From positions 199,572 through 263,571 of the forward strand of contig CAVXEH010000003.1 in NCBI GenBank assembly GCA_963760875.1: a stretch of DNA of 64,000 nucleotides. Direction: 5' to 3'. Positions 34,956-51,300 of the stretch are shown piece after piece; within the stretch, counting starts at the first letter, position 1, and each line of letters starts with the position of its first letter. This stretch comes from an uncultured Chloroflexia bacterium (GTDB lineage: Bacteria > Chloroflexota > Limnocylindria > QHBO01). A model generated the notes under the pieces. It saw only the letters and a list, made by a program, of their open reading frames with translations, was not told the origin of the DNA and ran no database searches. The position numbers were made by a program, and so were the translations under genes.

Positions 34956-35031
34956 ACGACCTGTCGCGCGTACCGGGTGACATCGGTACCAACGAGCCAT
35001 CGCTCCCAGCGGTTGCCACTTCTAGCATCCG

Positions 35032-38000
35032 GTGCACGGTTCCTCACAGAAGCTCCACCCAGGGGCACCGGACCGGCGACCAGCAGGAGCGACGGCGTTG
35101 CCAGCACAGACCCGCGACCGGGGAGGCGACTCCAACCCGCTGATCAGCGTGGCCCAGGCGGCCGCGCAGCTCGGGGTGCACCCCAACACCATCCGCGCCT
35201 GGACCGATGCCGGACGCCTCCCGGCCTTCCGCATCAACGCACGGGGTGACCGGCGGTTCCGGCGCTCCGACGTCGAGATGCTTCTCGCCGAGGGCGGCGA
35301 GCGGGTCCCACCGGCCGCGGGGACCGCGCTCCAGGCCTCGCACCACGACGCGGAGGTTGCCGTGCTGGCCCGGATCGCCCAGGGCGCCGGCGGACCCAGC
35401 CCCGTCGCAGTCTGCCGCGTGGTGATCGACGCGCTGCGGACGCAGCTCGGCTACGAGCGGGTGGCGATCTACCTCCAGTCGCGGGGCGCCATGCGCCTGG
35501 AGACGCACGCGGGCTTCCGCCAGCCGCCCTCCGCGACCATTGATCCGGACGCGCTCCGCGTCGTCGCGCAGGGTCCCTTCGAGGTCGACACCCTGGCCCC
35601 CATAGCCGCGCCCGCCGTGCGCCTGCCGATCCGCGCCGCCTCGGAGTTCCTTGGCGTGCTCGTCGTGGCCGGCCGGACCGACGGCACGCCCGCGGAAGAC
35701 GACTGCTCATTCCTCGAGACGGTTGCGAGTGCCCTGGGCACCGCGGTGCAGAACGCGCGGCTGCTGGCACGCGCCCGTCGCGAGCTGACCAGGGCGCGCG
35801 CGTTGCGCGGCACCATCCAGGAGCTGAGTGGCGAGCTCGACCTCCCGACGGTCCTCGACGGCATCGTCGACCGCAGCCGCGCGCTGTTCGGTGCCGAGAA
35901 GGTCGGCCTCTGGCTCCTGCTCGAGGCTGAGCCGCCCTTCCAGCTGGCCGCCGCGCGCGGGATCGGGGACGCCTTCCAGGCGCGCGTCCGGTCACTGACC
36001 GTGACGAGCCCCTCGGTGGGGGTGCGCGCCGCCATGGAGCGACGCACGCATGTGGTGCAGCACGCTTCGACCGATGCCCACGTGGGCGCCATGCAGGATA
36101 TCTACATCGAGGAGGGCATCGAGACGGCCTGCCTGGTGCCGCTCGTGACGAACGAGCAGACCATGGGCGTCCTGGGCCTGTACCACACCCGCCCGCACGA
36201 GTGGCCGGCCGAGGAGCTCAACCTGGCGCAGGCCCTTGCCAACCAGGCGGCGGTGGCCATCACCAACGCGCGGCTCTATCGCTCGGTGGCCGACCAGGCG
36301 GCACGCATGCGCTCCATCCAGGACCTGTCCGCCCGCCTCAACCGCCTGACCGATGTCCGCGCCATCGCGGATGCCATCGTCGCCGAGGCGTCGACCCTGG
36401 CCGAGTACCACGACATCCGGGTCTACGAGGTGGACTGGGAGCGGCGCACCTGCGAGCCCATCGCCTTCACGCGACGCCTGCTCGGCGAGGGCGGCGACTT
36501 CGTCGAGCGGCTGCGGGTCGGTATCGGTCCGGGATCCTTCACGGGCACCGCGGCGGAGACCGGCGAGGCGCTGCTGATCAACGACGCCCTCGAGGACCAG
36601 CGCGGGCACACCATCGACGGGACCGACGACATCGAGGAGTCGATGCTGGTGGTGCCCATGATGTTCGAGGGACGCGCGGTGGGCGTCCTCGCGCTCAGCA
36701 AGCTGGGCACAAACCAGTTCAGCACCGATGACCTCCAGACGATGTCGATCTTCGCGGGCTACGCGGCCCAGGCGATCGCCAACGCGCGGGCCTACGCCCA
36801 GCTCGAGCAGCAGTCGGGTGAGCTGGCCCGCCAGCTGCAGTCGCAGCGCCGGCTGCTGGAGATCAACGAGCAGCTGCTTTCCACCTTCGACCAGCAGCAC
36901 GTGCTCGAGCTCATCGCGGACGGGCTGCAGAGCGTGGTCCGCTACGACAACCTGTCGATCTATCGGGCCGATCACACCGAGCGGGTCATGCGGCCGGTGC
37001 TCACCCGCGAGCGCCATGCCGACGTCATCTCGCGCTACATCATCCCGTTCGGCCGCGGCCTGATGGGCTGGGCCGTGGACCATGGCGAACCGGTGCTCGC
37101 CAACGACGCGCTTAACGACCCGCGGGCGGTGCAGATCCCGGGCACGCCAGCCGATCCCGAGTCGCTCTGCGCGGTCCCGCTGCTGAGCAACGGGTTCGTC
37201 ATCGGCTCGCTGAACATCTCGCGCATCGGCGGTGCCGAGGCGCACTTCTCGGACTCCGACTTCGAGCTGATCAAGCTGTTCGCCGGCCAGGCCTCGATCG
37301 CGCTGCGCAACGCCGCGGCCCACCACGAGGTGCGGCAGCGAGCCGAGACCGACGCCCTGACCGGCCTTGGCAACCACGGCGCGTTCCAGCGCTACCTGGC
37401 GCAGGTCTTCGACACGGTGGACGACGAGGCGGGCGAGCCCCCGTTCGGGCTGCTGATGATGGACCTCGACCGGTTCAAGGAGTACAACGACGGCCTGGGC
37501 CACCCCGCCGGTGACGCGCTGCTGAACGCTGTTGGACAGGCGATCGTGCGCGCGGCGCGCGCGAATGACCGGGTCTTCCGCTACGGCGGTGACGAGTTCG
37601 TGGTCGTCCTGCAGGGGACGACGCCCGCGGAGGCCGTGCTTGCCGCCGACCGCATCCGGCGCGCGGTGGCGCGCATCACCGCGGGCGAGACATACCCGGT
37701 GACCATCACGGTGGGCGTGGGCGCCTACCCGGCCGACGCGCGCGACAAGAACGCCCTCATCAACGCGGCGGACACCGCCCTCTACTACGGCAAGCAGGCC
37801 GGCGAGAACCGCGTGGTCCGCATTGCTGACGTGCCCCGCGAGATGCGTGCCCTGCGCGGGACCCTCGACCAGCTGGCGCGCACCGCGCTCCTCCATCCCG
37901 AGGAGGCGGGAGCCATGGAACAGCTCGTCGAGCAGGCCGCGCGGCTGGGCTCTGGTATCGACGACGAGGCATCGGTCTCCCTCCGCGACGCGGTGCTGGG

Positions 38001-38508
38001 CATGGCCCGCAGCCTGGGCACCCAGGACGCCGACGGCCGGTCCCACGCGGACCGCGTCGCTCGCCTGGCCCGCGAGGTCGCGGAGCAACTGGGCTGCCCG
38101 GTCCACGAGGCCGATACGGTCGAGCTCGCGGCGCGCCTGCATGGCATCGAGGAAGTCCACGCCGAGACGCTGGACGCCGTTCGATCCCTGCACGGCGTCG
38201 CGGAGATCCTGGGCACCGAGCGTCGGCTGAGCAGCGGCGCCCGGCGACGCGGGCGCGGGCCTATCTCGCTCGGCGCAGAGATCGTCGCGGCAGCGAACCA
38301 GTTCGACGCGCTCGTCGACGGCCAGGCCGGCCGGCGCGCCATCGTCACGGCGCTCGAGGCGCTGCCGGACCGGGCGCCGGGCGTCCGTCGCGAGGTGATC
38401 GACGCAGTGCGAAGGGTCGTGCGCGGGTCGCCGAAGCGGCCCATCACCCGCGGCCGGCGACGGGTCGACGGCGCGGCGCCGGCGGTCGAGGAGCGCGGCG
38501 CCGCCTGA
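35032..38508 (+). CDS. Multidomain signalling protein (1158 aa) with an N-terminal excisionase/MerR-type HTH, three or four GAF domains, a GGDEF diguanylate cyclase domain and a degenerate HD-GYP-like domain
   Basis: HTH ISVAQAAAQLGVHPNTIRAWTDAGRLPAFRI. GAF repeats. An A-site RYGGDEF with the upstream D..DRFK metal site. The C-terminus has SHADRVARLA and AARLHGIEEV (HD to HG). The exact start is uncertain. Confidence 0.8.
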   Translation: MHGSSQKLHPGAPDRRPAGATALPAQTRDRGGDSNPLISVAQAAAQLGVHPNTIRAWTDAGRLPAFRINARGDRRFRRSDVEMLLAEGGERVPPAAGTALQASHHDAEVAVLARIAQGAGGPSPVAVCRVVIDALRTQLGYERVAIYLQSRGAMRLETHAGFRQPPSATIDPDALRVVAQGPFEVDTLAPIAAPAVRLPIRAASEFLGVLVVAGRTDGTPAEDDCSFLETVASALGTAVQNARLLARARRELTRARALRGTIQELSGELDLPTVLDGIVDRSRALFGAEKVGLWLLLEAEPPFQLAAARGIGDAFQARVRSLTVTSPSVGVRAAMERRTHVVQHASTDAHVGAMQDIYIEEGIETACLVPLVTNEQTMGVLGLYHTRPHEWPAEELNLAQALANQAAVAITNARLYRSVADQAARMRSIQDLSARLNRLTDVRAIADAIVAEASTLAEYHDIRVYEVDWERRTCEPIAFTRRLLGEGGDFVERLRVGIGPGSFTGTAAETGEALLINDALEDQRGHTIDGTDDIEESMLVVPMMFEGRAVGVLALSKLGTNQFSTDDLQTMSIFAGYAAQAIANARAYAQLEQQSGELARQLQSQRRLLEINEQLLSTFDQQHVLELIADGLQSVVRYDNLSIYRADHTERVMRPVLTRERHADVISRYIIPFGRGLMGWAVDHGEPVLANDALNDPRAVQIPGTPADPESLCAVPLLSNGFVIGSLNISRIGGAEAHFSDSDFELIKLFAGQASIALRNAAAHHEVRQRAETDALTGLGNHGAFQRYLAQVFDTVDDEAGEPPFGLLMMDLDRFKEYNDGLGHPAGDALLNAVGQAIVRAARANDRVFRYGGDEFVVVLQGTTPAEAVLAADRIRRAVARITAGETYPVTITVGVGAYPADARDKNALINAADTALYYGKQAGENRVVRIADVPREMRALRGTLDQLARTALLHPEEAGAMEQLVEQAARLGSGIDDEASVSLRDAVLGMARSLGTQDADGRSHADRVARLAREVAEQLGCPVHEADTVELAARLHGIEEVHAETLDAVRSLHGVAEILGTERRLSSGARRRGRGPISLGAEIVAAANQFDALVDGQAGRRAIVTALEALPDRAPGVRREVIDAVRRVVRGSPKRPITRGRRRVDGAAPAVEERGAA

Positions 38509-39394: not shown

Positions 39395-40450
39395 ATGGCG
39401 AGCACCGAGCTGCCCGACGCGGACTGGGGAGACGAGAGCGCCCTCGACGATCACGCCGGCCGCAAGCGCGACCGGCTGGCGCGCCTGCTGCGCGTGGCCT
39501 CGATCCTGTACAGCGCGGGCAGCGGCGAGCAGGGCGTCCCCGTCTCGGAGATCGCCCGCCTGACCGGGATGACGACCCGCACCGTCTACCGGGACATCAA
39601 CGCCCTGGACAGCGAGCTGGGGATCCCCATCTTTTCTGCGGGACGCGGCCGGTACGGCATCGAGCGCAAGTACTTCCTGCCCCCGCTGCACCTGTCCGTC
39701 CCGGAGGCCATCGTCCTCTTCCTGGCCGCGCGCCTCATCGCGCGCTGGAGCGACGAGTACGACCAGGCCGTGGTGAGCGCCTTCACCAAGCTCGCCGACC
39801 TGCTGCCGCAGCCGATCGCCCGCCACGTCGCCGCCACCATGCTGGCGGTGGGCGCCCACTCCCCGAACGAGCCGTTCACCCGCACCTTCTCGACGGTGGC
39901 TCGCGCCTGGGCGGAGGGTCGCGTGGTGGAGATCGACTACGAGCCGGGCGAGGGAACCCGCCGCGTCACCCGCGTGCGTCCGTACTTCCTGGAGCCCGAT
40001 GCCGCGCTGCGCAGCGTCTACCTCATCGGCTTCGACGAGGGGGCCGATGCCATGCGCACCTTCAAGGTCGAGCGCATCCGCGCCGCGACCCTGCTGGCCG
40101 AGCGGTACGAGATTCCCCCGGGCTTCGACCCCGACCGGTGGCTCGCACACTCCTGGGGGATCTGGTCGTCCGATACCACGCCCACCGTCGAGGTCCGGCT
40201 CCGGTTCGACCCCGGCGTGGCACACCGCGTGCGGGAGGCGGTCTGGCATCGGTCCCAGCGGCTCACGGAGCTGCCCGGCGGCGGCGTGGAGCTGAGCGTG
40301 ACGGTGGCCGGTATCGTGGAGATTCGACCGTGGATCCTGTCCTGGGGCGACGGCGTGGAGGTCCTGGCGCCGCCCGACCTGCGCGCCTCCGTGTCCGCGG
40401 CGGTCACCGCGGCGGCGGCCCGCTATGGTGAGCACCCTGACGGTGGCTGA
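39395..40450 (+). CDS. WYL-domain transcriptional regulator (HTH + WYL + WCX, PafBC/YafY-like)
   Basis: HTH VSEIARLTGMTTRTVYRDINALD. WYL core VEIDYEPGEGTRRVTRVRPYFLE...YLIGFDEGADAMRTFKVERI. Confidence 0.7.
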   Translation: MASTELPDADWGDESALDDHAGRKRDRLARLLRVASILYSAGSGEQGVPVSEIARLTGMTTRTVYRDINALDSELGIPIFSAGRGRYGIERKYFLPPLHLSVPEAIVLFLAARLIARWSDEYDQAVVSAFTKLADLLPQPIARHVAATMLAVGAHSPNEPFTRTFSTVARAWAEGRVVEIDYEPGEGTRRVTRVRPYFLEPDAALRSVYLIGFDEGADAMRTFKVERIRAATLLAERYEIPPGFDPDRWLAHSWGIWSSDTTPTVEVRLRFDPGVAHRVREAVWHRSQRLTELPGGGVELSVTVAGIVEIRPWILSWGDGVEVLAPPDLRASVSAAVTAAAARYGEHPDGG

Positions 40451-41117
40451 GGGCGACGAGGTCGAGCTGAAGCTCCTGGCCATCGACGGGCGGCCGCTCG
40501 AGGCCCTGGCGGCGCGGCAGACGCTGGGACCGGCGCGCCTTGGGGCGGTGCGCGTGAGCGACGAGATGGACCGATATCTCGACACCGCGGACGGGCGGCT
40601 CAGCGCCGCTCGCTGGGCATGCCGCCTGCGGACTCGTGGAGGCCGCACCATCGTGTCGCTCAAAGGCCCCAGCCGATCGACCGGCGACGACGCTGCCCTC
40701 CACCAGCGCCCGGAACGCGAGGGGCCGGCGGAGGACCGCCTGGATCCTGCGTCGTGGCCGCCCTCCGAGGCCCGGGACCTGCTGCTGGAGCTCTCCGCGG
40801 ACCGGCCCCTGGTGGAACGCCTGGCGCTGCGCCAGGAGCGCTCGGAGCGCGCGGTTCAGGCGGGGGGCACGCGCGTCGGCACGCTGAGCCTCGATCGGGT
40901 GGACGTCCTCCGCCGGGGAGAGGGCGTGGGACGCCTGTTCGTGGTCGAGCTGGAGCTCGCCGGAGATGCGGCGCGAGACGCCTCGCTCATCGGCGAGCTT
41001 TCGTCGGCGCTCGCCACGGTGCCCGGGCTAAGCGCCGATCCGTCGAGCAAGCTCGAGCACGCACTGGCCCTTGTCGCCGGCGCACCGGCGGCATCCGCCT
41101 CGTCGCCGCTGACGTGA
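40425..41117 (+). CDS. CYTH-domain protein (triphosphate tunnel metalloenzyme / class IV adenylate cyclase-like)
   Basis: N-terminal ExExK (EVELKLL) and a C-terminal acidic ELELA motif. It overlaps the WYL gene by 26 nt. Confidence 0.55.
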   Translation: MVSTLTVAEGDEVELKLLAIDGRPLEALAARQTLGPARLGAVRVSDEMDRYLDTADGRLSAARWACRLRTRGGRTIVSLKGPSRSTGDDAALHQRPEREGPAEDRLDPASWPPSEARDLLLELSADRPLVERLALRQERSERAVQAGGTRVGTLSLDRVDVLRRGEGVGRLFVVELELAGDAARDASLIGELSSALATVPGLSADPSSKLEHALALVAGAPAASASSPLT

Positions 41118-43330
41118 TCCGAATCGGGCCGGCCCGGCTGGCGGCCGGGGAGGTCGTGGCCCTCGGGGCGGGCTTGGCGACCTTTGGCTACCTGGCCTGG
41201 GACCAGGCGCTGTGGGATGCGCGCTTCCAGGCAGCGCTGCACGTCATCGCCGCGGGCGCGATCGTGGGGATGGCTCTGCTGGCCCTGCGGCAGGTGCCCG
41301 TGCCGCGCACGAGGCTGGAGACGCCGCTGCTGCTCGTCCTCGTCGTGCTGGGCGCGGCGACCGTCGGCAGCCAGAACCTCGGCCTCTCGGCGGCATCGCT
41401 TGCGGCCTCGATCTGCTGGGTGCTGCTGCTGCCGGTGGCGATGGTGGTCGTGCGGCGGCGGCCCACCCTGGCCGTGCTGGCGGTCTCCATCCCGATCGCG
41501 GGACTGGCGGTTGGCACGCTGTTCTTCATGCTCGGCCGGCGGATCGGCTGGATCCTCGCCGACGGCCCCGGGCTGCCGCCGGTCAGGATGCCCGGCGAGT
41601 CGACGCCCTTCGGCTCGGTGGCCGTCGTCCCGTTCGTGCTGCTCGCGTGCCTTGGTCTCACGCCCCTTGTGCGCCCCATTGGCGTGCGACGCGCGCTGCA
41701 GGCGCTCCTGGTGCTCCTTGGCGTGCCTCTTGGATTCCTGTCGGGCTCGCGTTCCGCGTGGCTAGCCCTCGGGACGGCCGGGCTGGTCTTCGTCGTCACG
41801 CAGGTGCGGCGCAGTGGCTGGCGGATCTCGCTCCCGCGCCGCCCGGCGATGGTCGGAGCTGTTGTTGCCGGCCTCGCGGTCCTGGCGGCCGGAGCCATCT
41901 TCGTCGCTCAGCGGGTCACGGCTCTCACGTCGATCCTGTATCGCGAGAACCTCTGGCGGGACACGCTGAGAGCCTGGTCGGATCACCCCCTGCTGGGCGT
42001 GGGCCCCGGCGTCATGCCGCTCGCGCGGCAGGCGGCCGCCGCACCGGGCACCTTCCCCGCGGTGCAGCCGCACTCCCACGATCTCGCCCTGGGCCTGCTG
42101 GGGGACGCCGGGGTCATGGGGCTCGCGGCGGGGCTGATCCTCGTCGGGGCGTTCCTGTGGAGTGCCGGGCCGCATCGCTCCCGGACCGTCCGGGGTCGGG
42201 CCGCAGCGTCGATCCTCGTCGGGTTCCTGGTCGCGGGCCTCTCCGAGGACCTCACGTTCATCCCCGGATTCGACCTGCTGATCCTCCTCCTGGTCGCCGT
42301 GGCGCTCGAGGATGCCGGTGTGGTGCGTTGGCAACCGGTGGCACGCCTGCGACCAGGCAGCGCCACGCGGCCGGTCTTCGTGGGAGCGGCCCTGGTCTTC
42401 GCCGCCGCGCTCATCCTGCCCGCCGGCCTCACCGACACGTCCGCGGTGGTGTACCGGGTTGCCGCAGACCAGGCCTGGGCCCGCCAGTGGCCGGCGGCCA
42501 CGGCGCAGTACAGGACTGCCGTGGCGCTGGATCCGTGGCAGCCCGCCGGGCCCAAGGCCCTGGCGGTGGCCGCGGACAATGCGGGTGACGCCGCAAGCGC
42601 GCTGGCCGCCGCGAGACGGGCCACCGAGCTCAGCGCGGGCGACGACGAGTCGTGGACGAACCTCGCCATCCTGTGCGCGGCGGACGGCGACCGAGCCTGC
42701 GCGGCGAACGCCGCGCAGAAGGCGGTTGACTACACCCCGACCGGAGGCTCCGAGCTGGCAAATGCTGCCCTGGTCCTGGAGCACCTGGGAAATCACGAGG
42801 CCGCCGATGACGCCTACCGGCAGTCGGCGCTGGTCAACCCCCAGACCACGATCGTCCTCGCCTGGCCCCGGCAGATCGATCCCGGCTCGACGGTCCCGCC
42901 GGAGCTGGACCCAACCAGCGGCGAGCTCAACCTGCTCGTGGCCACGCGCACGACGGGGGGCACCGTGGATCCCGCGCAGTACGCGGCGCCGGCTGTCCGG
43001 GCCTTCGCCCTCGCGATGGTCGGGGACCGAAGCGGGGCGCTCATGGCGATGGACACCGCCCAGCGCAGCGCCCCGCACGACGTCCTGACCTGGGACGTCT
43101 CCGTGCTCCTGCTCCGACACTGGAACCTCGACGCCACGCGGGCGGTCCGGATCGACGAGGCGCTTCGGGGCGGTCCGCTGGCCCGGGGCGGAGCGGAGCC
43201 CGCGCGGCTGACCTGGGACGTGGCCACCTTCCGCGCCTTTCCCGCGGACGGGCTCGTGAGCGGCGCCACCCGACTCCTCTCACCCGATTCCTGGCTGGAC
43301 GAGATGGGACGGCTGCTGCCGCCGTCCTGA
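41114..43330 (+). CDS. O-antigen ligase/Wzy_C-family polytopic membrane protein with C-terminal TPR repeats
   Basis: About 10 TM helices. Wzy_C signature YRENLWRDTLRAWSDHPLLGVGPG. C-terminal TPR-like repeats. The GTG start at 41114 overlaps the CYTH stop. The track ORF start at 40619 is rejected. Confidence 0.6.
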   Translation: MIRIGPARLAAGEVVALGAGLATFGYLAWDQALWDARFQAALHVIAAGAIVGMALLALRQVPVPRTRLETPLLLVLVVLGAATVGSQNLGLSAASLAASICWVLLLPVAMVVVRRRPTLAVLAVSIPIAGLAVGTLFFMLGRRIGWILADGPGLPPVRMPGESTPFGSVAVVPFVLLACLGLTPLVRPIGVRRALQALLVLLGVPLGFLSGSRSAWLALGTAGLVFVVTQVRRSGWRISLPRRPAMVGAVVAGLAVLAAGAIFVAQRVTALTSILYRENLWRDTLRAWSDHPLLGVGPGVMPLARQAAAAPGTFPAVQPHSHDLALGLLGDAGVMGLAAGLILVGAFLWSAGPHRSRTVRGRAAASILVGFLVAGLSEDLTFIPGFDLLILLLVAVALEDAGVVRWQPVARLRPGSATRPVFVGAALVFAAALILPAGLTDTSAVVYRVAADQAWARQWPAATAQYRTAVALDPWQPAGPKALAVAADNAGDAASALAAARRATELSAGDDESWTNLAILCAADGDRACAANAAQKAVDYTPTGGSELANAALVLEHLGNHEAADDAYRQSALVNPQTTIVLAWPRQIDPGSTVPPELDPTSGELNLLVATRTTGGTVDPAQYAAPAVRAFALAMVGDRSGALMAMDTAQRSAPHDVLTWDVSVLLLRHWNLDATRAVRIDEALRGGPLARGGAEPARLTWDVATFRAFPADGLVSGATRLLSPDSWLDEMGRLLPPS

Positions 43331-43377: not shown

Positions 43378-44076
43378 TCAGCCGCGCTCGAGCGGCAGCC
43401 GCAGCAGCAGGGCGAGCGTGGGCCGCGGACGGGGCTCGGCCGGGACGACGGGGGCCCGCAGCCACGCATCACCTGCCGCGCCACCCCGGTACCGTGCGGT
43501 CAGACAGCGCGCTGAGAGCCCCTCGATGCCCAGCAGCGCCAGGGCTTCGGCCACGAGGGTTCCCTCTCTGGGATACCCGTGGCCCACGATGGCGCGATCG
43601 CCGGGGGCCAGCACCTCGTGGAGCTGCTGCCGGCGTGCGGCAAAGGGACGGCGCATGAGTGAGGCGCCGCCGCTCCACAACAGGTCGGAGGCGACGTACG
43701 CCGGCCGGCCGGCCCGGCGAAGCGCCGATCCCCGTCCCAGGCGCTGGCGGAGGAGACCGCCATCGGGGCGGCCGGCGTCGTCGAGGACGAGCAGCGTCCC
43801 GTCAAGGACAACGGCGTTCCCGGTCACCTGGCCGGGCAGGTCGTCGAGCTCCGGGAAGGCCGCCAGCGCGTCGGAGAGCCCTGCGACCTGCAGGCGCAGC
43901 CGGCCGTCCTCGATGAACGCGAGCGAACGGACGCCCGGCCACCACGGCTCGAACCAGAACTCGGGATCGTCGAACGGCGCGTCGACCGTGGTGGCCTGCA
44001 TGGGCCGCACCAGTGCGGGCAGCCGCCGGGACACCGATTCCGATTCGAGGGGCAGGCTGAGCTGGTCGCCGGTCAC
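43378..44076 (-). CDS. LigD-ligase-domain-like protein with degenerate nucleotidyltransferase motifs (catalytically inactive 'pseudo-ligase')
   Basis: It aligns along its length to the adenylation domain of ATP-dependent ligases (PMQATTVDAPFDDPEFWFE..., LDGTLLVLDD, DLLWSGGASLMRRPFAARRQQL, IEGLSAR). Motif I KxDGxR is replaced by PWWPGVR. The motif V Lys residues are replaced too. Confidence 0.6.
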   Translation of the reverse strand: MTGDQLSLPLESESVSRRLPALVRPMQATTVDAPFDDPEFWFEPWWPGVRSLAFIEDGRLRLQVAGLSDALAAFPELDDLPGQVTGNAVVLDGTLLVLDDAGRPDGGLLRQRLGRGSALRRAGRPAYVASDLLWSGGASLMRRPFAARRQQLHEVLAPGDRAIVGHGYPREGTLVAEALALLGIEGLSARCLTARYRGGAAGDAWLRAPVVPAEPRPRPTLALLLRLPLERG

Positions 44077-44086
44077 GCGCGCACGC

Positions 44087-45061
44087 TCAGGCGGTCTTGC
44101 GCCGGCGGGCCGGCCGCTCCTCCTCTGCCGGGGCGGCCTTGCCGGCCTTCGCGGCCGGGGACCTGCCGCTCGACGAGCGCGTCGCGGCCTTGCCGCGCGG
44201 AACGCTCTTCGTTGGCGCCTTCGCCGTGGCAGCCCGCTTCGCGGCCGGCTTCTCCTCGGCCTCCGGCGCCGCGCGCCGGCCCTCGCGCGCGGCCGCCACC
44301 GACGCCTCCAGGGCGGCCATCAGGTCGGCGATGCGGGTCGGCTCCGCGTGCGCCGCCGGCTGCGGCGCCTCGCCGGCGACCTTGGCCTCGATGACGCCCA
44401 TGAGCGCCTCGCGGTACTCGTCGCGGTACTCGGTGGCATCGAAGTCGCCGGTCATGCTCGCGACGAGCTGCTCCGCCATCTTGCGCTCGCTGGCCTTGAT
44501 CTCGATGCCGTCCTCGGGGAGGGTCAGCTCGTCCAGGGATCGGACCTCATCGGGCCAGTGCAGGGTGGTGAGCAGCATGGTGCTCGCGTACGGGCTGAGC
44601 GCGGCGAGCTGCTCGCGGTCCTTGAGGACGATCTTGCAGATCGCGGTCTTGCCGCCATCGGCCAGGACGTCCTTGAGCAGGTAGAACGCCTTGCGGCCGA
44701 TCTCGTCCGGCTCCAGGTAGTACTCCTGCTTGACGAAACGGGCTGCTGAGTCCTCCGCCTCGCCGGCCTCGACGAACTTCTCGATCTCGATGGCGCGCAC
44801 GGTCTTGAGCGGGACCGACTCGAGGTCCTCCTCGCTGATGACGACGTACTTGCCCTTGCTCCACTCGTAGCCGCGGACCGTGTCCGAGCGTGGGATCACC
44901 TCGTCGTGGTACGGGCAGTAGATCTTCATCTGGATCCGGTTGAGGCAGGAGGCATGCAGCATGTTGAAGCCGATGCTCGTGCTCTCGGTGGCCAGGTACA
45001 GCTTCACCGGGATGGTGACCAGCCCGAACTGGATCGCCCCCCGCCACATCGATCGCGCCAT
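44087..45061 (-). CDS. ku: Ku protein (non-homologous end joining)
   Basis: MARSMWRGAIQFGLVTIPVKLY Ku core and a basic Ala/Lys/Arg-rich C-terminal tail. The upstream track extension to 45283 is rejected. Confidence 0.85.
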   Translation of the reverse strand: MARSMWRGAIQFGLVTIPVKLYLATESTSIGFNMLHASCLNRIQMKIYCPYHDEVIPRSDTVRGYEWSKGKYVVISEEDLESVPLKTVRAIEIEKFVEAGEAEDSAARFVKQEYYLEPDEIGRKAFYLLKDVLADGGKTAICKIVLKDREQLAALSPYASTMLLTTLHWPDEVRSLDELTLPEDGIEIKASERKMAEQLVASMTGDFDATEYRDEYREALMGVIEAKVAGEAPQPAAHAEPTRIADLMAALEASVAAAREGRRAAPEAEEKPAAKRAATAKAPTKSVPRGKAATRSSSGRSPAAKAGKAAPAEEERPARRRKTA

Positions 45062-45754: not shown

Positions 45755-46439
45755 GTGAACCGCCGCGGTCCCGCCGTGCTCACCGCCCTGATGCTCACCG
45801 TGGGCGGGGTCTCCTCCGCTCTCGCCGTGGCCGCGCCGTCGGCGCGTCCGGAGGTCACCGCCCTGCTCGCCATCGTCGCCGCCCTGGCACTGGGCGTGGG
45901 CGCCGGGATGCTGGGCCAGCAGCTCCGCGTCCGCAGCAGGCGCCGCGCCGGAGGACGTCGTCCGGCTGCTCTCCGGAGCCCTCGACGACGCCTACCTCCT
46001 GCTGGTGAGCCCACGCCTGCCCGGCGTGGCCGCGGAGGTCGAGGCCCTGCTGGTCGGTCCTCCCGGGGTGCGCGCGGTGATCGCGCGCCGCTGGCATGGC
46101 CGCTACCGGGTCCGCGGTCACGGCTGGGAGTTCGACCGCGGCAGCCGCCGCGGTTGGATCCCGTGCACCACCAACCCCACCTTCGAGGGCGCGGCGGCGC
46201 GCGGCGCGGTCGTGACCTGGGCGCAGTGGGGCCGGCTTCGAGAACCTGCCCATCGAGCCGGCCGTGGCTTTCCCCGACCGGCAAGCCACCTCGTGCTCGA
46301 GGAACCCGACGCAGAGGTGATCACCACCGACAACGTGCCGTGGTGGGCCAACGGCATGGGTCGGGTCCAGCGGCTCAACGCCGAGCGGGTCATCGCCTTC
46401 GCCGAGTCGGTGATCGAGACCTCGCGCCGGTCGCGGTGA
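45755..46439 (+). pseudogene. NERD-domain membrane protein with an apparent 1-nt frameshift near 45950
   Basis: Two N-terminal TM helices end at ...QQLRVRSRRRAGG. The protein then continues in the +1 frame as (E)DVVRLLSGALDDAYLLLVSPRLPGVAAEVEALLVGPPGVRAVIARRWHG...NPTFEG, which is a NERD fold with Lys replaced by Arg. Confidence 0.4.
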
Positions 46440-47203
46440 TACGGGCCGATGGCTGCCAACCATCCCGGGCTCACCTCGCCGCGCCGGCTGATCCCGGCGT
46501 CCAGGGCGCTACTGACCCGAGGACCCGGTCCCTCGCCTCCGTCAGACCGCGCCTCGCGAGCCGCGAGCCAGTCCTTGGCGGTCCGCTCATCGAGGATCTC
46601 CGCGAGCAGCTCGTCGGGACGCTCGTCGTCCGCCACCAGCAGCGACGTGCGCCACGCGACGCTGTACCGCCACGGCCTCCACGGCAGCGCTCGACCTCCG
46701 GGTACGAGCGCCGAGGCGATGGCGGCCTCCGTCATGGTCACGAAGCGATCTGCGGCGTTCAGCAGGCCGTCCGCCGGGCCGGCCCCCAGCGGCACGTGGA
46801 TGGTGCCCGTCACGCGGAACGGCGGAATGCCGATCTGTGCCTTCACCGGCCGCTTGGGGATGCGCATCTCCGGCCGGGCCGTCCCCTGCGATGGCCGCCA
46901 CGCAGAGCAGGATCTCGTCCAGCGCGACGTGGACCTGGCGCGCGCCCAGGCGTGGCGGTAGGATCCGGCGAACTCGGAGATCGTGGCCTGCTCCACCAGC
47001 AAGTGGGTGGTCGTGACCTGGTTGAGGAGGTCGCTCACCCGGGGGAATCGGGTCGACATGTAGCCTGAGATGCGATAGGCGGCGGTGTAGAGATCAAGAT
47101 TGACCTGGGAGACCCCGGCACTGAACGGGTCGGCAGCGAACACGTCCATGGTCGTTCCGATGCTAGCAGGCCCGATGGCGAGACCGGCGGCGATTCGGGC
47201 CAT
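46118..47203 (-). CDS. Hypothetical protein co-transcribed with the ATP-dependent DNA ligase (3' extent uncertain)
   Basis: ATG at 47203, 4 nt after the ligase stop. The first 260 or so aa have a diverse, protein-like composition (MDVFAADPFSAGVSQVNLDLYTAAYRISGYMSTRFP...). The remainder is low-complexity and overlaps the NERD gene on the opposite strand. Confidence 0.25.
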   Translation of the reverse strand: MARIAAGLAIGPASIGTTMDVFAADPFSAGVSQVNLDLYTAAYRISGYMSTRFPRVSDLLNQVTTTHLLVEQATISEFAGSYRHAWARARSTSRWTRSCSAWRPSQGTARPEMRIPKRPVKAQIGIPPFRVTGTIHVPLGAGPADGLLNAADRFVTMTEAAIASALVPGGRALPWRPWRYSVAWRTSLLVADDERPDELLAEILDERTAKDWLAAREARSDGGEGPGPRVSSALDAGISRRGEVSPGWLAAIGPYHRDRREVSITDSAKAMTRSALSRWTRPMPLAHHGTLSVVITSASGSSSTRWLAGRGKPRPARWAGSRSRPHCAQVTTAPRAAAPSKVGLVVHGIQPRRLPRSNSQP

Positions 47204-47207
47204 CCGG

Positions 47208-48935
47208 TCAGGACTCGCCCGCGCCCTCCCGCCCGGTCGCGATCCGCTCCGTCTCACCGCCCGCGCCGGTTGCCAGCAGGATGCGCCCGGATGCCTGGTC
47301 GGCGAAGAGCCGCTCCACCGCTGCGAGGTCGTCCACCTGGTCCGGCGCCTTGTCGGTGCGGATCCGGACGATGCGCGGAAACCGCAGCGCAAACCCGGAC
47401 CGATGGCGCCCCGAGCGCATGATCCGGTCGAAGGCGATCTCCACCACGACCTGCGGGACGACGCTGCGGTAGCGGCCATGGTCCCGGACCGTGGTCGCCA
47501 GGAAGTGCTCCGTCATCCGCGCGATCTCGGCGTCGGTGAGCCCCGTGTAGGCCTTCCCGATGGTGAGCAGCGACTCCCCGTCCGGTCCCCGCACTGCGAA
47601 GGTGTAGTCCGACAGGACGCCGTGCCGCTTGCCGTGGCCCCATTCGACGCCCACCACGACGCAGTCGAGCGTGGCGAGCGCTCGCTTGAGCTTGAGCCAG
47701 CCCAGGCCGCGGCGTCCCGGCTGGTACGTCGATGCGGGGTCCTTGATCATGAGCCCCTCGTTGTGGCGCTCGCGTGCCTCGTCGAACGCGGCGTCCACCG
47801 CGGCCGCACCGCGCACCGTGGCGAGGTGGGAGTACAGGACGCCGCCGTTGCTGCGCTCCGGCAGCCCCAGCCCCTCCAGCGCGGCGCGACGCTCGCGGAG
47901 CGCCTGGTCGAGCCGGTCATCTCCATCGAGGTGCAGCAGGTCGAATGCCACCAGCACCACCGGGATCTGCGCGACCAGCGCAGGATCGGGATCCACGCGA
48001 CCCAGCCGCGCCTGGAGGGACGCGAAGTCCAGCACCGCGCCCTCCCGGAACGGGACCAGCTCCCCGTCGATCACCACGCGGTGCCCCAGCCCGCGGGCCG
48101 CGCCCACGACCTCGGGAAACGAGACGGTGATGTCGTTGAGGTCCCGGCTGAACAGCCGCGGGCCGTCCGCCTCCCGGCCAAGGTGCAGCTGGCAACGGAT
48201 CCCGTCGTACTTGTCCTCGATCCATGCCTCGACCCCAACGCGGCGCACGACCTCGGCGGCGTCGGCGACCGGGGTGGCGAGCATGAAGCGGATGGGGCGC
48301 CCCACGTGGAGCGCTGCCGTCGCGAGCCGGTCGGCGCGTGCCAGCGCGGCCGCCTCGCCGGGCTCCGCCACGAGCATGAGCGCCCGGCGCACGGCCTCGT
48401 GAGGCCGGTCGAACGCGGCGGCGATGGCCTCCTCCAGCAGGCCCTCGCGCAGCCCGATGCGCAGCTCGCGGGCCGCGATGCGGGCCAGGTAGCGCGCCTC
48501 GCCCGACGTCGAGCGGGCGAAGAGGCCTGTCATCAGCGCCATGCGCGCCTCGGCGCTCGCCGCGGCGGCCATCGCGCGGAATGCCGCGTCGACGTCCCCA
48601 AGGCTGAGCGGCTCCGCGGGCGGCGATCGCCGCTCGAGCAGGTCGGCCGCGGCGTCGCCCGGATCCGAGTGGCGCAGGTAGGCGGCGCGCAGGTCGTCGT
48701 CGCCGGCGGCGCTGGCCGCCCGGAGCGCCCCGGAGAGCTGCACCCAGCCCAGCCCCAGCTTGTCCGCCATCCCCGCAAGCGGACGGCCCGCGAAGAACGT
48801 GGCCGCCCGGGGTACGTCGTCGGCCGGCAGGTCGCGCAGGTAGGCGGCCAGCAGGTCTCGCTTGCGCAGCTTCGAGGTCGTCGCACCCACCGCATCGGCG
48901 ACCACGGCGAAGTCGGCGAACGCTGAGCCCGGCAT
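47208..48935 (-). CDS. ATP-dependent DNA ligase (LigB-type, adenylation + OB domains)
   Basis: Motif I EDKYDGIR, motif III FDLLHLDG, motif IV/V EGLMIKD and motif VI LRFPRIVRIRTDK. Confidence 0.85.
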   Translation of the reverse strand: MPGSAFADFAVVADAVGATTSKLRKRDLLAAYLRDLPADDVPRAATFFAGRPLAGMADKLGLGWVQLSGALRAASAAGDDDLRAAYLRHSDPGDAAADLLERRSPPAEPLSLGDVDAAFRAMAAAASAEARMALMTGLFARSTSGEARYLARIAARELRIGLREGLLEEAIAAAFDRPHEAVRRALMLVAEPGEAAALARADRLATAALHVGRPIRFMLATPVADAAEVVRRVGVEAWIEDKYDGIRCQLHLGREADGPRLFSRDLNDITVSFPEVVGAARGLGHRVVIDGELVPFREGAVLDFASLQARLGRVDPDPALVAQIPVVLVAFDLLHLDGDDRLDQALRERRAALEGLGLPERSNGGVLYSHLATVRGAAAVDAAFDEARERHNEGLMIKDPASTYQPGRRGLGWLKLKRALATLDCVVVGVEWGHGKRHGVLSDYTFAVRGPDGESLLTIGKAYTGLTDAEIARMTEHFLATTVRDHGRYRSVVPQVVVEIAFDRIMRSGRHRSGFALRFPRIVRIRTDKAPDQVDDLAAVERLFADQASGRILLATGAGGETERIATGREGAGES

Positions 48936-48969: not shown

Positions 48970-51300
48970 ATGGAGACCGCCGGCGTGATGCATGCCGACC
49001 CGCCCCGGCTGTCGATCGGCCAGGCCGTGGAGGCGCTTCGCGCCGTCTACGGCATCTCCGGGCGCCCCTCGCCCCTGGTCAGCGAGCGGGACCAGAACTT
49101 CGCGGTCGAAGCCGATGACGGCACGCGCCACGTCCTGAAGGTCTCGAACCCGGCCGAGGACGCGGGCGTCGTGGAGATGGAGGTGCTGGCCGTCGAGCAC
49201 GTCACCGTCATGGCCCCCGGGCTCCCGGTGCCGCGCGCACACCCCACCCTCGCCGGCGAGCTGGTGGGAACGGCGGAGGTCGACGGCGTCAGCCATCTGC
49301 TACGCCTGCTGCCGATGCTCCCCGGTCGCAACCACCACCCCGGGGAGCTGGACCTGCGGGCGATGCGCCGCATCGGGGTCTTCACCGGGGAGCTGAGCCG
49401 TGCCCTGCGCGGGTTCTTCCACCCCTCGGCCGGCCGCATCATCGAGTGGGACCAGAAGCAGCTGCCGACCCTGCTCCCCCATGCCGACCTCGTGGTCGAC
49501 CCGCAGCGCCGGGCGCTCCTCGACCGCGTCCTGGAGCGGGTTCGGACGCGGGTGCTGCCGGCGCTGCCCGGGCTCCGCGCCCAGGTGATCCACAACGACC
49601 TGACCCTGGACAACCTGCTCCTCGACGATGCGGGCGTCATCACCGGCGCCATCGACTTCGGTGACATGGTGCACACCGCGCTGGTGCTGGACGTGCCCGC
49701 CACCCTGCAGTCGCTGGTGCGCGACCGCTCCGACGTCTTCGACGTGGGCGCGGCATTCCTGGCGGGGTACACCTCGGTCGTCCCGCTCGAGCGCGACGAG
49801 GGCGAGCTGCTGGGAGATCTCCTCCTGGGGCGCATGGCCCAGACCATCCTGATCTCGGTGTGGCGGACACGCCGCTACCCGGACAACGCCTACATCACCG
49901 GGTGGGAGGAGCCCGCCTGGGCGCTGCTGCGCCAGCTCGACGCCGGGGGCTTCGAGGCGGCCGGCCGCCGTCTGGCATCCATGGCCGCCGCACCTGACGT
50001 CGGTCGGCGGACCGGTGCCCTGCCCGAAGAGACGTCCCTCCGTGACCGCCGGCGCCGGGTGCTGGGCAGCGCGCTTGCCCCCCTCACCTATCGCACGCCG
50101 CTGTACCTGGTCGGCGGCCGCGGGGCGTGGATGCATGACGCGCAGGGACGGGCGTGCCTGGACGCCTACAACAACGTGCCCGTGGTGGGACACGCGCATC
50201 CCCGCGTGGCAGCCGCCATCGGCCGCCAGGCGGCAACCCTCAACACCAACACGCGCTACCTGCATCCCGCAGTGGTGGAGCTGGCGGAGCGGATCAGCGC
50301 GAGCCTGCCCTCCGGGCTGGACACGGTCATGTTCGTCAACTCCGGGAGCGAAGCCAACGACCTGGCCTGGCGCCTGGCGAGGACCGCGACCGGCGGGGAC
50401 GGGGCCCTGGTCACCCGCTGGGCGTACCACGGCGTCACCGCGGCCATCGACGACATGTCGCCGTCCGAGTGGCGCCACGGGCGACAGCCTGCCAACGTCG
50501 AGACGATCCCGGCGCCCGACACCTTCCGCCCCTCCTACGCCAACCCGCTGGACCCCTCGGCCGCCGGCGAGGCGGTTCGGGACGCAGTCGAACGGCTCGA
50601 AGGCCGGGGCGTTCGTCCCGCGGCCATCTACATCGACTCGATGTTCACCTCGGAGGGCATCTTCGCCCCCCGCTCCGAAGCGGTGGCGGCCGTCCTCGAC
50701 GCGGCGCGCGCGGCCGGCGCCCTGTACGTCGCCGACGAGGTGCAGGCCGGCCACGGCCGCTCGGGCGACGGACTGTGGACCTTCCCGACATGGGGCCTGA
50801 CCCCGGACGTCGTGACCTTTGGCAAGCCCATGGGCAACGGCCATCCCATCGCCGCGGTCGCCACCCGCGCCGAGCTCGCCGACCGCCTCGCGGCCGAGAC
50901 CGAGTTCTTCAGCACGTTTGGCGGCAACCCGGTCGCCTGCGTGGCCGCCCTGGCGGTCCTCGACGTGATCGAGGACGAGGGCCTGGTCGCCAACGCGGCG
51001 GCCACCGGCGGCTGGCTGCGCGACCGCCTGCGCGAGATGGCGGCGCGGCGGCCGGCCATCGGCGACGTCCGCGGGCGCGGCCTGATGACCGGTGTCGAGC
51101 TCATCGATGCCGACGGCGGCCCGGCATCGGGCCTGGCGGAACGGGTACGCGACGAGATGCGCGAGCACGGGGTGCTGGTCGGCACCACCCGGCGCGAGGG
51201 CAACGTGCTGAAGATCCGGCCGCCCCTGTGCCTGACGCGCGACGAGGCGGGGATCATCGTCGAGACCCTCGACGCGGTGCTGGGCGACATCGGCGGCTGA
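48970..51300 (+). CDS. Bifunctional fusion of an APH/HSK-family kinase (N-terminus) and a class-III PLP-dependent aminotransferase-fold enzyme (C-terminus, phospho-lyase-like)
   Basis: Kinase catalytic loop HNDLTLDN and the metal motif IDFGD. Class-III PLP motifs GSEANDLAWRLA and DEVQAGHGRSG, and the Lys box TFGKPMGNGHPIAAV. Confidence 0.75.
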   Translation: METAGVMHADPPRLSIGQAVEALRAVYGISGRPSPLVSERDQNFAVEADDGTRHVLKVSNPAEDAGVVEMEVLAVEHVTVMAPGLPVPRAHPTLAGELVGTAEVDGVSHLLRLLPMLPGRNHHPGELDLRAMRRIGVFTGELSRALRGFFHPSAGRIIEWDQKQLPTLLPHADLVVDPQRRALLDRVLERVRTRVLPALPGLRAQVIHNDLTLDNLLLDDAGVITGAIDFGDMVHTALVLDVPATLQSLVRDRSDVFDVGAAFLAGYTSVVPLERDEGELLGDLLLGRMAQTILISVWRTRRYPDNAYITGWEEPAWALLRQLDAGGFEAAGRRLASMAAAPDVGRRTGALPEETSLRDRRRRVLGSALAPLTYRTPLYLVGGRGAWMHDAQGRACLDAYNNVPVVGHAHPRVAAAIGRQAATLNTNTRYLHPAVVELAERISASLPSGLDTVMFVNSGSEANDLAWRLARTATGGDGALVTRWAYHGVTAAIDDMSPSEWRHGRQPANVETIPAPDTFRPSYANPLDPSAAGEAVRDAVERLEGRGVRPAAIYIDSMFTSEGIFAPRSEAVAAVLDAARAAGALYVADEVQAGHGRSGDGLWTFPTWGLTPDVVTFGKPMGNGHPIAAVATRAELADRLAAETEFFSTFGGNPVACVAALAVLDVIEDEGLVANAAATGGWLRDRLREMAARRPAIGDVRGRGLMTGVELIDADGGPASGLAERVRDEMREHGVLVGTTRREGNVLKIRPPLCLTRDEAGIIVETLDAVLGDIGG

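Follow-up and report, generated by a model that had tools for sequence, protein, structure and literature searches.

A lysine-free, predicted pseudo-ligase of the LigD adenylation-domain family is encoded directly downstream of ku in Limnocylindria

The locus in this report lies in a 64-kb stretch of contig CAVXEH010000003.1, from an uncultured Chloroflexia bacterium of the Limnocylindria with a genome of 72% G+C; the whole stretch is called the window here, and positions are counted from its first nucleotide. Open reading frames (ORFs) of the window were listed mechanically, and domains were assigned by Pfam and NCBIfam profile searches. On the minus strand a ku gene (44087-45061) is followed in the same direction by ORF 43378-44076, the coding sequence of a pseudo-ligase that we call pLig, much as a first-pass annotation of this DNA had described the pair: ku, then a degenerate gene resembling the ligase part of LigD. 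The Ku protein has 324 residues counted from its conserved MARSMWRGAIQFG start and matches TIGR02772 (E=7e-80) and Pfam Ku (E=3e-40). Its core beta-barrel leads into a C-terminal extension rich in lysine, and its last residues, ...RRRKTA, are conserved. In the form ...RRRK(T/S)A this end (44087-44110 in the window, minus strand) is almost invariant in the Ku genes of the loci compared below (L001-L092), where it follows a highly variable Lys/Ala-rich stretch; it is also present in the distant loci L085, L086, L088 and L090 and resembles a peptide motif of its own.

The pLig gene (43378-44076, minus strand) starts with GTG and encodes 232 residues, a nucleotidyltransferase (NTase) domain only, with no lysine. 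Its G+C content by codon position (0.82/0.55/0.87) is typical of a genuine gene in this genome. Ten nucleotides (44077-44086, minus strand) separate the Ku stop from the pLig GTG, a spacing consistent with one transcript and coupled translation, and no sigma-70-like promoter or intrinsic terminator was seen between or around the two genes. On the other side, a convergent gene for a membrane protein with Wzy_C and TPR matches ends at 43330, 47 nt from pLig. A PADLOC search for defence systems matched neither Ku nor pLig nor the small ORFs nearby.

Profile searches relate pLig to DNA ligases. Pfam DNA_ligase_A_M (PF01068) matches residues 35-206 with E=8.5e-7, barely over the gathering score, and the NCBIfam LigD models PRK09632 (E=8e-26) and TIGR02779 (E=8e-21) match in their adenylation (NTase) part only; of the 781 positions of PRK09632 only 471-657, the NTase domain, are matched. 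The closest solved structures, found by a phmmer search of the PDB, are those of the Mycobacterium tuberculosis LigD ligase domain (1VS0, 6NHX and 6NHZ; E about 1e-11). An AlphaFold2 model based on a 95-sequence alignment (predicted local distance difference test [pLDDT] 89, predicted TM score [pTM] 0.85) shows a single alpha/beta domain with a floppy N-terminus, a short C-terminal helix and no OB domain. Foldseek placed the model among the adenylation domains of ATP-dependent ligases, with a TM score of 0.72 to archaeal ligases at probability 1.00, and with 26-29% identity to LigD 6NHX/1VS0. These matches and the model identify pLig as a homologue of the ligase NTase domain with the same predicted fold.

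The motifs of that domain can be followed along pLig in its alignment to 1VS0, and the conservation of each residue was read from alignments of 95-121 family sequences. At the equivalent of motif I (FEPWWPGVR, residues 42-50; 43927-43953, minus strand), M. tuberculosis LigD has EGKWDGYR and pLig has EPWWPGVR; the AMP-accepting lysine is replaced by tryptophan and the aspartate by proline, with the glycine and arginine retained. The run F42-E-P-W-W-P-G48 and R50 are invariant across the 95-121 aligned sequences. In motif III (LDGT, residues 91-94; 43795-43806, minus strand) LDGE has become LDGT, a threonine standing in place of the ribose-contacting glutamate (T94 in 116/121), and in motif IIIa (SDLLW, residues 130-134; 43675-43689, minus strand) FDLL has become SDLL, with serine for the adenine-stacking aromatic residue (S130 in 107/121). 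The motif IV equivalent (EGLSAR, residues 185-190; 43507-43524, minus strand) reads EGLsaR against EGViaK, an arginine replacing the lysine (R190 in 118/121). At motif V (WLRAP, residues 205-209; 43450-43464, minus strand) WvK aligns with WLRaP, and Lys-x-Lys is changed to Arg-x-Pro (R207 in 120 and P209 in 111 of the 121). The protein stops 25 residues past motif V, and motif VI and the OB domain are both absent. Because these replacements are nearly invariant across the family, they are a conserved signature rather than drift. Judged from its sequence, pLig lacks what a ligase enzyme needs at every element examined, namely motifs I, III, IIIa, IV and V and the OB domain with motif VI, and we predict that assays of self-adenylylation and nick sealing would be negative.

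Most of what the first-pass annotation had said of the protein holds. The colinear alignment with a LigD-type adenylation domain is upheld by Pfam, by NCBIfam and by the phmmer alignment; motif I has no lysine (EPWWPGVR against EGKWDGYR of 1VS0); and the model with pLDDT 89 and a Foldseek TM score of 0.72 recovers a ligase-like fold. The claim that the lysines of motifs V and VI are replaced stands for motif V, which is Arg-x-Pro, and falls for motif VI, which has gone with the OB domain and is not a substitution. The lack of an OB domain is confirmed by the end of the profile match at the NTase domain and by the convergent gene 47 nt away. A frameshift concealing an OB domain was also considered and is ruled out, as the convergent gene ending at 43330 leaves no room for one downstream of pLig. 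Sequencing error, which had been named as a way in which the loss of motif I might be overturned, is excluded because the motif I codons TGG TGG CCG are at least three changes away from any lysine-containing motif and because FEPWWPG recurs in 78 of 78 independent loci.

The lysine-less character of the protein had also been singled out. The count of zero in 232 residues is correct; with a background lysine content of 1.66%, the chance of having none is about 0.02, and the absence is not remarkable by itself. Active LigD ligase domains of high-GC genomes have merely 4-5 lysines in about 320 residues, so the loss of the catalytic lysines suffices to leave none. The absence of lysine in pLig is a consequence and not a feature, and 83 of the best 120 family members are likewise without any. 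The idea that selection acts against lysine itself, such as to evade its modification, was dropped, since composition together with loss of the catalytic lysines explains the absence.

A protein search with pLig yielded 603 relatives. The best 120 of these are 200-246 residues long and 62-92% identical, and the organisms named are Candidatus Limnocylindria, a class of the Chloroflexota. In a scan of one genome per species, 212 species genomes, the majority of them Candidatus Limnocylindria, encode a pLig relative. Our neighbourhood counts come from 80 loci of one related Limnocylindria clade among these 212 genomes, and the denominators 53, 64 and 74 are those of the 80 loci with enough flank. 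Throughout the family the length is steady at about 230 residues, 46 columns are invariant in the 95-sequence alignment, and FEPWWPG is kept in 78/78 orthologous loci. The ratio of nonsynonymous to synonymous substitution rates (dN/dS) of pLig is 0.06-0.16 between the closest pairs; for the same genome pairs it is 0.11-0.30 for Ku, 0.14-0.19 for the LigB-type ligase described below and 0.04-0.14 for a WYL regulator. Purifying selection on pLig is by this measure as strong as, or stronger than, that on Ku and LigB.

In all 74 loci with enough flank, ku lies directly upstream of pLig on the same strand. The spacer has a median of 8 nt and is mostly 4-13 nt long (76 loci), and the pLig start is nearly always GTG. 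That pLig is a pseudo-enzyme, as the first-pass annotation had supposed, is supported by its ligase-like fold, the invariant replacements, purifying selection and the constant link to ku: its catalytic residues are replaced, and its sequence is conserved under strong purifying selection.

Since the 80 loci form one related clade, only the link to ku can be tested independently, and it passes this test in the distant members of the family. These were collected by a family-profile search of 1.84 billion cluster representatives and were placed wherever contig context sufficed. Members of the PWWPG type with less than 50% identity exist, and each one that could be placed with enough context directly follows ku. 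Those at L085, L086/L087, L088, L091 and L092 adjoin ku in otherwise unrelated neighbourhoods, and the Ku proteins of these loci are 34%-67% identical to that of the window. At L085, on a 1.88-Mb contig, ku and pLig overlap by 4 nt. Adjacency of pLig to ku is obligate, holding in the 74 loci above and in 7 distant ones. A beta-CASP/RMMBL nuclease comes after the ku-pLig pair of L085 (9261-10394); this is the family of the eukaryotic end-processing nuclease Artemis/SNM1 of non-homologous end joining (NHEJ).

Two distant loci have more of the pathway. In L090, ku is followed head to tail by genes for a PWWPG protein, for an intact LigD and for a LigD Prim-Pol. The PWWPG protein of this operon has no lysine, contains FEPWWPGIR and ends in ...LRRLPL; the LigD next to it has phosphoesterase (PE), ligase and OB domains with FEPKWDGYR. 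Gene order in L084 is as in L090, and frameshifts hit ku, pLig and ligD alike; we read these as long-read assembly errors, not decay. Genes for PolDom and PE were found in L084 and L090 alone; they are separate there and adjoin an active LigD that is itself separate. The first-pass annotation had raised the question of whether ku loci of relatives carry an intact LigD: L090 and L084 do so, beside pLig, and tblastn found no Pol or PE in the 80 Limnocylindria loci. The closest active relatives of pLig found (P0135 and P0161) are themselves LigDs in the same operon as a pLig, P0135 scoring 178 bits against the family profile. The dead domain is thus a further paralogue present alongside an intact LigD and not only its relic, which suggests that pLig arose by duplication of a LigD ligase domain beside ku. 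The ku/pLig/LigD/PolDom order in L090 and L084, in which pLig coexists with the enzyme, argues strongly that pLig has its own role in the Ku pathway. The roles of scaffold, Ku partner or regulator proposed in the first-pass annotation gain weight from these operons as roles that pLig may have. Rather than a lone degenerate copy, pLig is a member of a widespread, selected, Ku-coupled family of dead ligases with peptide motifs of its own.

Shorter lysine-less relatives with FEPWWGG or FEPRWGG, and with the same N-terminal QLxxxL and RLPL tail, occur in L081 (2557-3348) and L089 (317-1060). Their neighbours are a peptidase S9 and an ABC transporter in one case and an unrelated gene fragment in the other, with no adjoining ku. 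The best 150 cluster representatives also include 31 other LigD-like proteins without the motif I lysine, which is replaced by A, R, D, L, N, S, Q and other residues (P0143, P0155-P0163, P0170, P0171, P0175 and more); many of them have 300-400 residues. P0155, the sole one of these inspected, retains the OB domain and is not beside ku (L083, 447-1472).

The peptide motifs are at the two ends of the protein, and both ends of the window pLig have an LxLPL sequence. Near the N-terminus, QLSLPL (residues 5-10; 44047-44064, minus strand) lies in a low-confidence segment of the model (mean pLDDT 54 for residues 1-10) that is probably disordered. Q5, L6 and L8 are invariant where the N-terminus is present, P9 is common, and residues 11-17 are freely variable. 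The pattern QLxL(P/S)(V/L/I) is found in 62/78 loci, and QLxLx(L/I/V/F) has a chance rate of about 8e-5 per residue in the six-frame ORFs of the window. In the ku-pLig-ligD type the glutamine is replaced by methionine or proline. The segment is a candidate short protein-binding motif and matches the hexapeptide pattern for binding the beta sliding clamp. In Escherichia coli Hda the identical hexapeptide stands in the same place, a disordered extreme N-terminus, on a protein otherwise unrelated to pLig; the Hda peptide PAQLSLPLYL binds the clamp with a dissociation constant (KD) of 0.38 uM, the pattern being Q-aliphatic-x-(L/M)-x-(F/L) (PMC11139829). At the other end, the tail EPRPRPTLALLLRLPL (residues 214-229; 43390-43437, minus strand) consists of a Pro-rich linker and a hydrophobic LxLPL peptide in the place of the OB domain. 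It is nearly invariant, with (I/L)(L/Q)RLPL in 75/78 loci, and is modelled with pLDDT 74-83 and a short helix at residues 221-224.

We scored the distribution of both peptides among the 150 best cluster representatives. The N-terminal motif is present in 11/18 proteins of the PWWPG type, in 5/28 other lysine-less proteins and in none of 47 with the lysine; the corresponding counts for the C-terminal tail are 13/33, 2/30 and 0/77. Only lysine-less relatives have the peptides; the loss of catalysis is thus accompanied by their gain, as expected of an enzyme turned adaptor.

About 3 kb from pLig, as the first-pass annotation had noted, is a bona fide ligase, a LigB-type ATP-dependent DNA ligase (47208-48935, minus strand) with EDKYDGIR, all three domains of the DB-NT-OB arrangement and intact motifs. 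It lies upstream on the same strand in 53/53 loci with at least 7.5 kb of flank, and it is likely to be the sealing enzyme in the window's lineage, a membership of the system that we take from synteny. No LigB-type ligase was found within 8 kb of the distant pLig members. Searches for the LigD PolDom and PE modules by tblastn found nothing in the 64-kb window or the 80 Limnocylindria loci, and no active ligase of the LigD type was found near ku in this lineage. As far as these loci indicate, the window's lineage has retained Ku and pLig, with LigD and Pol missing at least from their neighbourhood. The LigB-type ligase lies outside the Lhr-MPE-exonuclease cluster given for Lig B in PMC7470946.

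An HTH-WYL-WCX regulator (39395-40450, plus strand) is convergent with ku-pLig and lies downstream on the opposite strand in 64/64 loci with at least 5 kb of flank. Going by its synteny, it may belong to the system, as a damage-responsive regulator of the ku-pLig pair. The regulator has a PafBC/DriD-like architecture, is the most conserved neighbour (dN/dS 0.04-0.14), and is followed by a CYTH-domain protein (39395-41117 for the two, plus strand). Between the LigB-type ligase and a response regulator are two small genes. The first, at about 46500-47149 on the minus strand, is a conserved ORF with a sub-threshold DUF6812 match (E=5e-5), and the second is a 144-aa ORF on the plus strand (46005-46439) with no Pfam family match. 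Codon-position G+C suggests that both are coding; the long ORF listed at 46118-47479 combines them. Divergent from the LigB-type ligase is a fusion of an APH-type phosphotransferase and a class-III aminotransferase (776 aa; 48970-51300, plus strand) that is conserved in many related loci, and a large MerR-HTH/multi-GAF/GGDEF protein of 1160 aa is encoded at 35026-38508 (plus strand).

Among known proteins, the LIG domain of LigD (M. tuberculosis Rv0938; 1VS0, 6NHX) shares with pLig the NTase fold, the ku partner and the colinear motifs I-V, at E values of about 1e-11 to 1e-26. It differs in having catalytic residues, an OB domain with motif VI and fused Pol or PE modules, whereas pLig has gained QLxLP and RLPL peptides that are missing from active LigDs. 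With no Pol or PE module, pLig is not a LigD by architecture. LigC and other minimal stand-alone ligases (NT-OB) resemble pLig in being small, in belonging to the same superfamily and in occurring in bacteria with several ATP-dependent ligase genes, but LigC is catalytically competent and has the OB domain and the full set of motifs (PMC7470946), and pLig has neither. A review of bacterial ATP-dependent ligases divides them into Lig B, C, D and E without mention of a lysine-less group (PMC7470946), and a census of bacterial NHEJ (Ku/LigD) sorts genomes by domain presence without considering inactive ligase domains (PMC7719229). Literature text searches of partial coverage found no description of the pLig family, which is not proof of novelty. 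In databases its members are named hypothetical (NCBI) or 'bifunctional non-homologous end joining protein LigD' or 'ATP-dependent DNA ligase' (IMG).

The nearest functional precedent is the ligase-dead LigD K484A of Mycobacterium smegmatis, a dead ligase module that supports Ku-dependent repair efficiently while another ligase seals. Work by Gong in 2005 and Aniukwu in 2008 is said to have given LigD a structural role and LigC the ability to seal, and the retained function of K484A LigD is usually credited largely to its Pol domain. K484A is a point mutant of a full PE-LIG-POL protein, whereas pLig is natural, is without Pol, PE and OB domains, and in some genomes stands beside wild-type LigD. 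The repair efficiency of the mutant was comparable to that of a polymerase-site mutant (PMC12848934), which fits a structural role of LigD and sealing by LigC. With XRCC4, XLF and PAXX, pLig would share only the proposed logic, a non-enzymatic bridging of Ku and ligase at DNA ends that is achieved partly through short peptides; those proteins have a head domain and coiled coil, whereas the pLig fold is that of a ligase NTase, with no kinship in sequence or fold.

We consider it probable, with a good deal of room for doubt, that pLig, a paralogue of the LigD NTase domain, serves Ku-dependent end joining as an accessory or adaptor subunit without catalytic activity. In this mechanism pLig would be made with Ku off one transcript and would keep the NTase fold while being incapable of forming the lysyl-AMP intermediate. 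The dead domain may dock on the Ku-DNA end complex, possibly by the same face with which the ligase domain of LigD engages the C-terminal arm of Ku, and R190 and R207, in place of the phosphate-contacting lysines, might maintain the phosphate contacts. The two flexible terminal LxLPL-type peptides could then recruit the sealing ligase and/or the beta sliding clamp. Sealing would be carried out by LigD in lineages with the four-gene operon and by the syntenic LigB-type ligase in the lineage of the window. The docking step is proposed by analogy with the binding of the LigD ligase domain by the Ku C-terminal arm: the Ku C-terminus contacts this domain, the contact is lost in LigD D522R, and K579 and L580 have a share in it (preprint 10.64898/2025.12.12.693941). 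K579/L580 map to the invariant R148-R149-x-x-L152 helix of pLig, which ligases conserve generally, and the mapping of Ku-contact residues onto pLig is only suggestive.

Several observations weigh against an adaptor of this kind. Equivalents of the Ku contacts are loosely conserved, the D522 position (86/87) being E-D in the family and G-N in the window pLig, and the equivalents of R567 and T572 differ in pLig. The sixth residue of the N-terminal motif is non-hydrophobic in 16/78 loci. Distant lysine-less relatives with the same tail (P0211 and P0148) do not adjoin ku. The synteny of the LigB-type ligase could merely mirror the shared ancestry of one clade, and it is absent around the distant members. 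Finally, we infer that pLig touches Ku, DNA, a ligase or the clamp, as we do the part played by the peptides and the choice of ligase for sealing. A fuller version of the adaptor reading is doubtful at present: a three-part form of end joining in a sizeable group of Chloroflexota and kindred high-GC lineages, in which the dead ligase would be an obligatory Ku-bound scaffold, the LxLPL peptides would bring the clamp and/or a ligase, and an exchange of LigD for a LigB-type enzyme would thereby have become possible in Limnocylindria.

The main rival to the adaptor, which we hold to be unlikely, is a negative regulator: a dead NTase that by competition keeps the real ligase off the C-terminal arm of Ku or off 5'-phosphate ends, holding the ends protected and unligated until processing or a signal. 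Such a role is as compatible with the anatomy of pLig as recruitment is, given a fold shared with the part of LigD (its ligase domain) to which the Ku C-terminus binds, arginine for lysine at the phosphate-contacting motifs IV and V, and production together with Ku, pLig being located in L090 between ku and ligD. No result separates inhibition from recruitment; the two gained terminal peptides suggest new partners, however, and not mere competition, and pLig is retained in lineages without a LigD found near ku. Less probable again is that the pocket binds a nucleotide or a 5'-adenylated DNA end non-covalently, as a sensor, or performs other chemistry with relocated residues. The scaffold of the pocket is invariant (G48, R50, D92, G93, the (E/D)-G of motif IV, and W205), with positive charge kept at R190 and R207, but all known AMP-contact and catalytic residues are changed together (K->W, D->P, E->T, F->S, K->R, K->R and K->P), the OB domain with motif VI that step 1 requires is missing, and 83/120 members are lysine-free. 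The invariant W45 and W46 may in addition fill the adenine pocket.

Very improbable in our estimate is a function unrelated to end joining, with adjacency to ku as inherited gene order; the lysine-less proteins with the same tail away from ku in L081 and L089 would suit it, but the 4-13 nt spacer or overlap persists over 34-90% Ku identity and through unrelated neighbourhoods, and pLig is embedded in ku-ligD-pol operons. Loss of all catalytic motifs and truncation ahead of the OB domain are also what a decaying LigD remnant (a pseudogene) or a sequencing or annotation artefact might look like, an explanation with almost no credibility left, refuted by the dN/dS of 0.06-0.16, the constant length, the 46 invariant columns, the motif in 78/78 assemblies and the coexisting intact LigD.

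Prokaryotic NHEJ is usually taught as a minimal machine of two proteins, Ku and LigD, without scaffolds of its own. A non-catalytic paralogue of the ligase, conserved under selection and translated together with Ku, would be the first candidate for an accessory subunit of prokaryotic NHEJ, and pLig offers a testable handle on how Ku recruits different ligases. Over-annotation of the kind seen in IMG means that domain-based surveys, such as the census in PMC7719229, would score genomes as NHEJ-positive through a protein that is predicted not to ligate. With 31 of the best 150 representatives being further LigD-like proteins in which motif I has no lysine, dead ligases may form a wider, overlooked class. 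If the three-part system is real, the dead paralogue would be the bacterial counterpart, in logic, of XRCC4/XLF.

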